This document shows positions 50,398 to 51,150 of a stretch of 64,000 nucleotides of DNA, piece by piece (within the stretch, counting starts at the first letter, position 1; the number at the start of each line of letters is the position of its first letter). The DNA is taken from NCBI RefSeq assembly GCF_045037415.1, contig NZ_CP173438.1. One strand, given 5' to 3'. The DNA comes from Escherichia coli. Lineage in GTDB: Bacteria; Pseudomonadota; Gammaproteobacteria; Enterobacterales; Enterobacteriaceae. The translations under genes and the position numbers were made by a program. Below the pieces are notes generated by a model. The model saw only the letters and a program-made list of their open reading frames with translations. It did not search any database and was not told where the DNA came from.

Positions 50398-51150
50398 ATG
50401 GCCGTACTGGGATTGCAGGGGGTTCGGGGAGGCGTGGGGACAACAACCATCACCGCCGCATTAGCCTGGTCATTACAAATGTTGGGAGAAAATGTCCTGG
50501 TGGTCGATGCCAGCCCGGACAACTTGTTGCGCCTGTCATTTAACGTTGATTTTACCCACCGTCAGGGTTGGGCCAGAGCTATGCTGGATGGCCAGGACTG
50601 GCGTGACGCCGGGTTGCGCTATACCTCGCAGCTCGATTTGCTGCCTTTTGGTCAGTTATCGATTGAAGAACAAGAAAATCCACAGCACTGGCAAACCCGG
50701 CTGAGCGATATTTGCTCCGGCTTACAGCAACTAAAAGCCAGCGGGCGTTACCAGTGGATTTTAATTGACTTACCGCGTGATGCCTCGCAGATAACCCACC
50801 AGCTGCTGAGTTTGTGCGATCACTCGCTGGCAATCGTCAATGTGGATGCCAACTGCCATATCCGACTGCATCAGCAAGCGCTGCCGGATGGTGCACATAT
50901 TTTGATTAATGACTTCCGTATTGGCAGCCAGGTTCAGGACGATATTTACCAGCTTTGGTTGCAAAGCCAGCGCCGATTGCTGCCGATGCTCATTCATCGT
51001 GATGAAGCGATGGCTGAATGTCTGGCAGCTAAGCAACCAGTCGGTGAATATCGCAGTGATGCGCTGGCGGCTGAAGAGATACTGACGCTGGCGAACTGGT
51101 GCCTGTTGAATTATTCCGGGCTGAAAACGCCAGTCGGGAGTGCATCATGA
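50398..51150 (+). CDS. bcsQ: Cellulose synthase operon ParA/MinD-like ATPase BcsQ, 250 aa, apparently intact
   Basis: Deviant Walker A-like segment near the N-terminus (GVRGGVGTTT); codon 6 reads TTG (Leu) at 50413..50415; reading frame uninterrupted. Confidence 0.85.
   Translation: MAVLGLQGVRGGVGTTTITAALAWSLQMLGENVLVVDASPDNLLRLSFNVDFTHRQGWARAMLDGQDWRDAGLRYTSQLDLLPFGQLSIEEQENPQHWQTRLSDICSGLQQLKASGRYQWILIDLPRDASQITHQLLSLCDHSLAIVNVDANCHIRLHQQALPDGAHILINDFRIGSQVQDDIYQLWLQSQRRLLPMLIHRDEAMAECLAAKQPVGEYRSDALAAEEILTLANWCLLNYSGLKTPVGSAS

Follow-up and report, generated by a model that had tools for sequence, protein, structure and literature searches.

Since 2013, the literature has described the amber codon in bcsQ of E. 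coli K-12 together with its repair and polarity; the primary paper is reportedly that of Serra et al. from that year. Moreover, pEtN-cellulose is said to have been characterized in strain UTI89 by Thongsomboon et al. in 2018. The bcsQ product is a MinD/ParA-family (SIMIBI) ATPase of the cellulose secretion complex; according to published work, it partners with BcsR and is required for assembly and stability of the Bcs complex. Both PMC5944007, citing Le Quéré and Ghigo 2009 and Krasteva et al. 2017, and the solved structures, by their titles, present BcsQ as a partner of BcsR that also binds BcsE and is indispensable for the secretion of cellulose. PMC7397504, PMC5014196 and PMC5635695 state that the change of bcsQ codon 6 in W3110 from TAG to TTG yielded the cellulose-proficient strain AR3110. 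The stop itself is described as polar on the downstream cellulose synthase genes in PMC7397504, PMC5014196, PMC4238805 and PMC5944007, a group of papers cited jointly for lesion, repair and polarity. The K-12 single nucleotide polymorphism is given as 17 T>A (PMC5944007).

We compared these systems with the cellulose locus on a 64,000-nucleotide stretch of E. coli DNA, hereafter called the window. With a probability of about 95%, the cellulose locus of the window (bcsRQABZC, the divergent bcsEFG and the adjacent pdeK) is that of E. coli in its undisrupted wild-type form, from a phylogroup-B2, ST131-like (O25b:H4) strain, and is genetically competent for the synthesis of pEtN-cellulose. The features of bcsQ on which the comparison is based are as follows.

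50398..51150, + strand: bcsQ, intact; ATG start, 250 sense codons and a TGA stop, no internal stop
50413..50415, + strand: codon 6 of bcsQ, TTG (Leu), the site of the K-12 amber codon TAG
50419..50448, + strand: deviant Walker A motif (P-loop) GVRGGVGTTT, codons 8-17, wholly downstream of the K-12 stop
50512..50514, + strand: codon 39 of bcsQ, AGC (Ser); Cys in K-12, strain 1094 and UTI89
51147..51150, + strand: ATGA overlap of the bcsQ stop (TGA) and the bcsA start (ATG), the translational-coupling junction

The first six codons of bcsQ read ATG GCC GTA CTG GGA TTG, and verification of the reading frame bore out the original prediction that it is open over 250 codons with TTG at codon 6. The encoded protein matched the NCBIfam equivalog NF007460 over residues 1-250 of 250 with 541.5 bits (cut-off 399, E 2.4e-163) and TIGR03371 with 296.3 bits (cut-off 157.85). 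An end-to-end alignment with the solved E. coli BcsQ chain 6ybu_A showed 247 of 250 residues to be identical. This identity and the full-length NF007460 match exclude that the open reading frame exists by chance. Furthermore, the gene is placed between bcsR, which ends at 50386, and bcsA, which starts at 51147, as expected of BcsQ. The exact 61-mer around codon 6 of the window, with TTG, was found in 1,082 complete genomes.

A masking of a real lesion by an assembly or consensus artefact, which would make the open frame illusory, is extremely improbable. A single-base indel at position ~1253 relative to the closest relatives could be a sequencing error, so that the sequence is not necessarily error-free. 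Positions 36150..64000, however, are base-for-base identical to independent assemblies, namely the O25b:H4 chromosome NZ_CP015085.1 (27,851 of 27,851 positions) and Esc5, and the bcsR-bcsQ segment is 100% identical in at least 40 genomes.

In MG1655 (NC_000913.3, positions 3,680,000-3,725,000), bcsQ (b3534) is annotated as a pseudogene by RefSeq. Alignment of the gene starts revealed GGA TAG CAG in K-12 versus GGA TTG CAG in the window, and the K-12 frame accordingly reads MAVLG, a stop and then QGV. The earlier statement that the K-12 reference has TAG at codon 6 is thus borne out by the MG1655 sequence. Apart from this codon, the K-12 pseudogene (b3534, MG1655/W3110) and its counterpart in the window are one gene, of equal length and in an operon of the same layout. 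They differ in codon 39, which encodes Cys in K-12, and in 18 nucleotides within the gene, and their flanks are only 96-97.7% identical. The exact K-12 61-mer around codon 6, with TAG, occurred in 348 of the 5,228 complete E. coli genomes having the region, and all 60 of the 60 genomes among the matches listed were K-12 laboratory derivatives. At codon 9 (50422..50424), three codons past the K-12 amber codon, the window has GTT where K-12 has the synonymous GTG, a potential re-initiation codon present in K-12 only.

In K-12, one T-to-A change turns codon 6 into the amber codon. As the P-loop starts two codons past position 6, this stop leaves no functional BcsQ. Translation of bcsQ is probably coupled to that of bcsA, because the stop and start codons overlap in the sequence ATGA, and with termination at codon 6, approx. 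735 nt of the mRNA preceding bcsA stay untranslated. It is plausible that this untranslated stretch is the physical basis of the published polarity, the coupling being lost and Rho-dependent termination possibly taking place. The view that the K-12 stop abolishes cellulose production through polarity on bcsA agrees with the cited papers, which report both polarity and the restoration of cellulose by the TTG repair. With the ancestral TTG at codon 6, neither defect, loss of BcsQ or polarity, is present in the window, and for this reason the locus is genetically competent for pEtN-cellulose. From the open frame, both BcsQ and coupled translation of bcsA are to be expected. The source strain may express the locus and produce cellulose.

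In Supplementary Data 3 of PMC10881479, bcsQ is truncated in 47% of ST10 genomes and near-universally (>90%) in ST167, ST617, ST744 and ST1060. This table gives no codon, and as far as it goes the K-12 allele with a stop in place of Leu6 may either be confined to laboratory K-12 or be shared with the natural ST10 complex.

The closest structurally described protein is BcsQ of E. coli 1094 (6YAR/6YBU; Bcs macrocomplex 9FNN/9FP0/9FP2), which likewise has 250 residues, the P-loop GVRGGVGTTT and a gene located between bcsR and bcsA. BcsQ of the window differs from it by three substitutions (C39S, N172D and K249A), and strain 1094 belongs to phylogroup A (PMC5944007), whereas the window is ST131-like. 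On the basis of 99% identity to the solved BcsQ, the protein encoded in the window is predicted to bind ATP, to form complexes with BcsR and BcsE and to function in cellulose secretion. Relationship to the MinD/ParA (SIMIBI) ATPases is more distant. BcsQ shares with the MinD/ParA ATPases the P-loop and the following Asp37, and it was weakly similar to MinD and ParA models and, over residues 6-152, to the solved MinD chain 4V02. The scores of 32-37 bits were far below the family cut-offs of 180-202, however, and BcsQ does not have the MinD signature lysine of the P-loop (GVRGGVGTT versus GKGGVGKT). By inspection, the catalytic Asp40 of MinD lines up with residue 39 of BcsQ, which is Ser or Cys.

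BcsQ homologues were sought among 1.84 billion representative proteins, and 89 full-length ones were aligned. The P-loop residues were conserved to different degrees (G8 in 70/89, G11 in 85/89, G12 in 88/89, G14 in 89/89 and T16 in 79/89), and D37 was present in 87 of the 89 sequences. Position 39 was occupied by Cys in 24 homologues, Ser in 22, Asn in 15, Asp in 15, Ala in 5 and Thr in 4, and the nearest representative homologue (65% identical) has Ser. Since Ser is about as frequent as Cys, Ser39 represents ordinary family variation. The exact 61-mer with AGC at codon 39 was present in 550 complete genomes, which marks Ser39 as an allele of the lineage rather than a mutation private to this strain. 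A lesion at this position had been considered and was rejected, as Ser is the second most common residue there.

The remaining genes of the locus and its surroundings are arranged as listed below.

46490..48169, - strand: bcsG, 559 codons, intact; C243, S278, H396, E442 and H443 present
48166..48357, - strand: bcsF, 63 codons, intact; identical to K-12 and UTI89
48354..49925, - strand: bcsE, 523 codons, intact; R415-x-x-D418 motif present
49926..50197: divergent bcsE/bcsR intergenic (promoter) region, 272 bp; no indels, 8 substitutions versus K-12 and 1 versus UTI89
50198..50386, + strand: bcsR (yhjR), 62 codons, intact; NF040717 75.8 bits, cut-off 46; identical to UTI89
51147..53765, + strand: bcsA, cellulose synthase catalytic subunit, 872 codons, intact
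53776..56115, + strand: bcsB, 779 codons, intact
56122..57228, + strand: bcsZ, 368 codons, intact; E55 and D243 present
57210..60683, + strand: bcsC, 1157 codons, intact
60765..62753, + strand: pdeK (hmsP/yhjK), c-di-GMP phosphodiesterase gene, 662 codons, intact, adjoining the bcs operon

The nine bcs genes are uninterrupted and lie in canonical order and orientation. Each product scored above its NCBIfam equivalog cut-off over the full length, and all nine open reading frames are equal in length to their counterparts in MG1655 and UTI89 and free of internal stops. The completeness of bcsRQABZC and bcsEFG, as originally predicted, was thereby verified. In BcsA, the motifs DCD360, FFCGS430, TED455 and QRIRW493 and the PilZ motifs RRSHR696 and DFSDGG723 were all present. 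For BcsA, BcsG, BcsE and BcsZ, the numbering of the catalytic and c-di-GMP-binding residues follows the literature, and none of the substituted positions falls on one of the checked motifs. A hidden inactivating lesion elsewhere in the bcs genes was sought by comparison of the nine frames with MG1655 and UTI89 and inspection of the motif residues, and none was found.

The locus was compared with that of the uropathogenic strain UTI89, which also belongs to phylogroup B2. Gene order and ORF lengths are the same, and the intergenic regions differ at one nucleotide. The Bcs proteins show 0-7 residue differences, BcsR and BcsF being identical and the others differing at 1-7 positions, among them A147T and F658I in BcsA and C39S, T107S and M244T in BcsQ. 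These and the other lineage missense changes were weighed by their position and by the variation within the family. Unlike the window, UTI89 encodes Cys39 in BcsQ and lacks IS150 at hokA. It resembles the window in having three ldr units beside bcsG. In the window, these three tandem ldr/rdl type I toxin-antitoxin units occupy positions 45122..46487 between yhjV and bcsG, with a period of 483 bp and 97% likeness, and three Rfam rdlD matches were obtained at 45217, 45700 and 46183. At this site ldrD/rdlD is single in MG1655, and three units exist in UTI89 and O25b:H4. Within the bcs region itself, a search with Rfam revealed no RNA families, and a promoter/terminator scan around bcsQ gave counts near the shuffled expectation.

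An intact bcs locus makes cellulose production possible without demonstrating it. The description of this DNA as cellulose-proficient at the sequence level therefore holds for the structural locus and not as a wider claim, because the regulators lie outside the window (the expression regulators being csgD, dgcC/adrA, rpoS, mlrA and dgcQ) and the rdar phenotype is variable in the lineage (PMC7671891). It is an even bet that the reading frames are intact and the locus is nevertheless silent, owing to regulatory lesions elsewhere or to hypomorphic missense alleles, in which case Congo red or calcofluor would show the strain to be cellulose-negative. The rdar morphotype is indeed infrequent and variable in O25b:H4 ST131: one study recorded it in 47% of the clade B strains but in 10% of those of clade C (PMC7671891), and most ST131 isolates were curli- and cellulose-negative in another (PMC7685377). 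Likewise, BL21 and H10407 have complete bcs genes yet no detectable cellulose (PMC5944007). In a further collection, expression of cellulose and curli was tied to that of the csgD pathway (PMC4794485). A silent locus would, however, concern the phenotype only and would not contradict the finding at the sequence level. Some ST131 strains are rdar-positive, which argues that the alleles of the lineage can work, assuming that they are shared across it. Moreover, the checked catalytic and binding motifs are free of substitutions, and Ser39 is frequent among BcsQ homologues. One might speculate that the ST131 allele set (BcsQ C39S, T107S and M244T; BcsA A147T and F658I) is hypomorphic and adds to the low rdar and cellulose frequency of ST131, especially in clade C. 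We consider this conjecture highly unlikely and found no support for it, Ser and Cys being similarly frequent at position 39 of the homologues.

To what extent the locus is typical of its lineage can be seen from the 100 random ST131 genomes in Supplementary Data 3 of PMC10881479. Truncated genes were recorded for bcsG in 9, bcsE in 2, bcsA in 2 and bcsZ in 1 of them and for bcsQ in none. Altogether, 14 of the 100 genomes had any truncated bcs gene and 86 were intact. As bcsQ was not truncated in any genome of this survey, the window corresponds to the majority state of its lineage.

Assignment to this lineage is based on comparison of the whole window with complete chromosomes. Outside IS150, every aligned block was 96.0-97.7% identical to MG1655 (43 kb compared). 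Positions 1..37182, on the other hand, matched NZ_CP015085.1 with 0 mismatches and one 1-bp gap, so that the whole 64 kb differ from this O25b:H4 chromosome by 0 mismatches and one 1-bp indel. Both the bcsR-bcsQ segment and the region of the IS150 junctions had their best matches in O25b:H4, JJ1887 and similar genomes, the latter region being 100% identical in many of them. These are ST131 strains, and O25b:H4 is the ST131 serotype. From the identity to the O25b:H4 genomes, the source strain appears to be ST131-like, a label chosen because the window contains no MLST locus and none of the O25b, H4 and fimH markers. The suggestion that the source is not a standard K-12 derivative was confirmed by these identities. 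Judged by its DNA, the strain is clearly not K-12: codon 6 is not TAG, the backbone is not nearly identical, and IS150 differs in orientation and junctions.

The repaired strain AR3110 has exactly the TTG found at codon 6 of the window (PMC7397504), and IS150 resides in the hokA/sokA locus as in K-12. Both features would be compatible with a K-12 derivative carrying a repaired bcsQ, or with a K-12 strain into which the region had been transduced. Such an origin is nonetheless vanishingly improbable and was rejected. Within bcsQ alone, 18 nucleotides differ from MG1655, and the identity of 96-97.7% extends over all 43 kb compared, far beyond the boundary of a P1-sized patch. IS150 is opposite in orientation with different junctions, three ldr/rdl units replace the single one of K-12, and the 64 kb match O25b:H4 almost completely. 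The source of the DNA is a wild, ST131-like E. coli, and bcsQ is intact because of this origin, the codon-6 stop of K-12 being the exception.

Intact bcsQ is what wild-type strains of this common clinical lineage normally carry; the gene is well studied, and this state of it is already known. The finding matters little beyond a sanity check that the window represents wild ST131-like E. coli with a cellulose locus free of inactivating lesions. Its practical use is that of a strain marker and of a reminder that the cellulose phenotypes of the lineage hinge on regulation and not on the structural genes.

The single indel relative to O25b:H4 is one extra A at ~1253 (GAGAACC versus GAGACC in O25b:H4). 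It causes a frameshift in a DUF4862-family gene (~595..1516, - strand) between yiaL and yiaM. Among 1,053 complete genomes with the region, the extra A was found elsewhere only in Esc5 (NZ_OZ369446.1), and it could represent either a private mutation or an error in sequencing. Esc5 has the extra A but no IS150, and O25b:H4 has IS150 but no extra A. No match among the complete genomes compared combined the ~1253 insertion with IS150.

IS150 itself (23468..24910) is identical to the K-12 copy at 1443 of 1443 positions and, as in K-12, occupies the hokA/sokA locus, with glyS on one side and hokA on the other.

~24987..25139: hokA

The position had been called K-12-like. This is correct for the locus, whereas orientation and junctions are different. 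Relative to its flanks, the element is inserted in the opposite orientation to that in K-12. It is bounded by a clean 3-bp AAG target duplication (23465..23467 and 24911..24913), which K-12 does not have, and the adjacent 37-38 bp are kept in the window and missing in K-12. The likeness is thus confined to the locus and adds to the case against a K-12 origin. On either side of IS150, Esc5 matches the window with 100% identity, and its site is precisely the unoccupied one, without IS150 and with a single AAG. The configuration of the window was present in 899 complete genomes. The left junctions of the IS150 insertions in the window and in K-12 are no more than 1-2 bp apart from each other and from that of BR1220, a variant with a 42-bp deletion and no IS, which may point to a hot spot or shared history. 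A literature search for hokA and IS150 yielded nothing relevant.

A full-length match to the Rfam family sok (CssrC), RF01794, was obtained with 89 bits at 23391..23544 (+ strand), across the boundary between what is left of sokA and the initial 77 bp of IS150. Because the match spans this junction, we suspect that the RF01794 model itself includes the terminal sequence of K-12 IS150. Upstream of hokA, a 38-bp hairpin-like segment at ~24914..24990 shows 6 substitutions compared to the form in UTI89/HH97. Furthermore, the hokA start codon is preceded by one A fewer (GGGAATG to GGGATG), which shifts the overlapping mokA frame. Esc5 carries both the 6 substitutions in the hairpin segment and the missing A.
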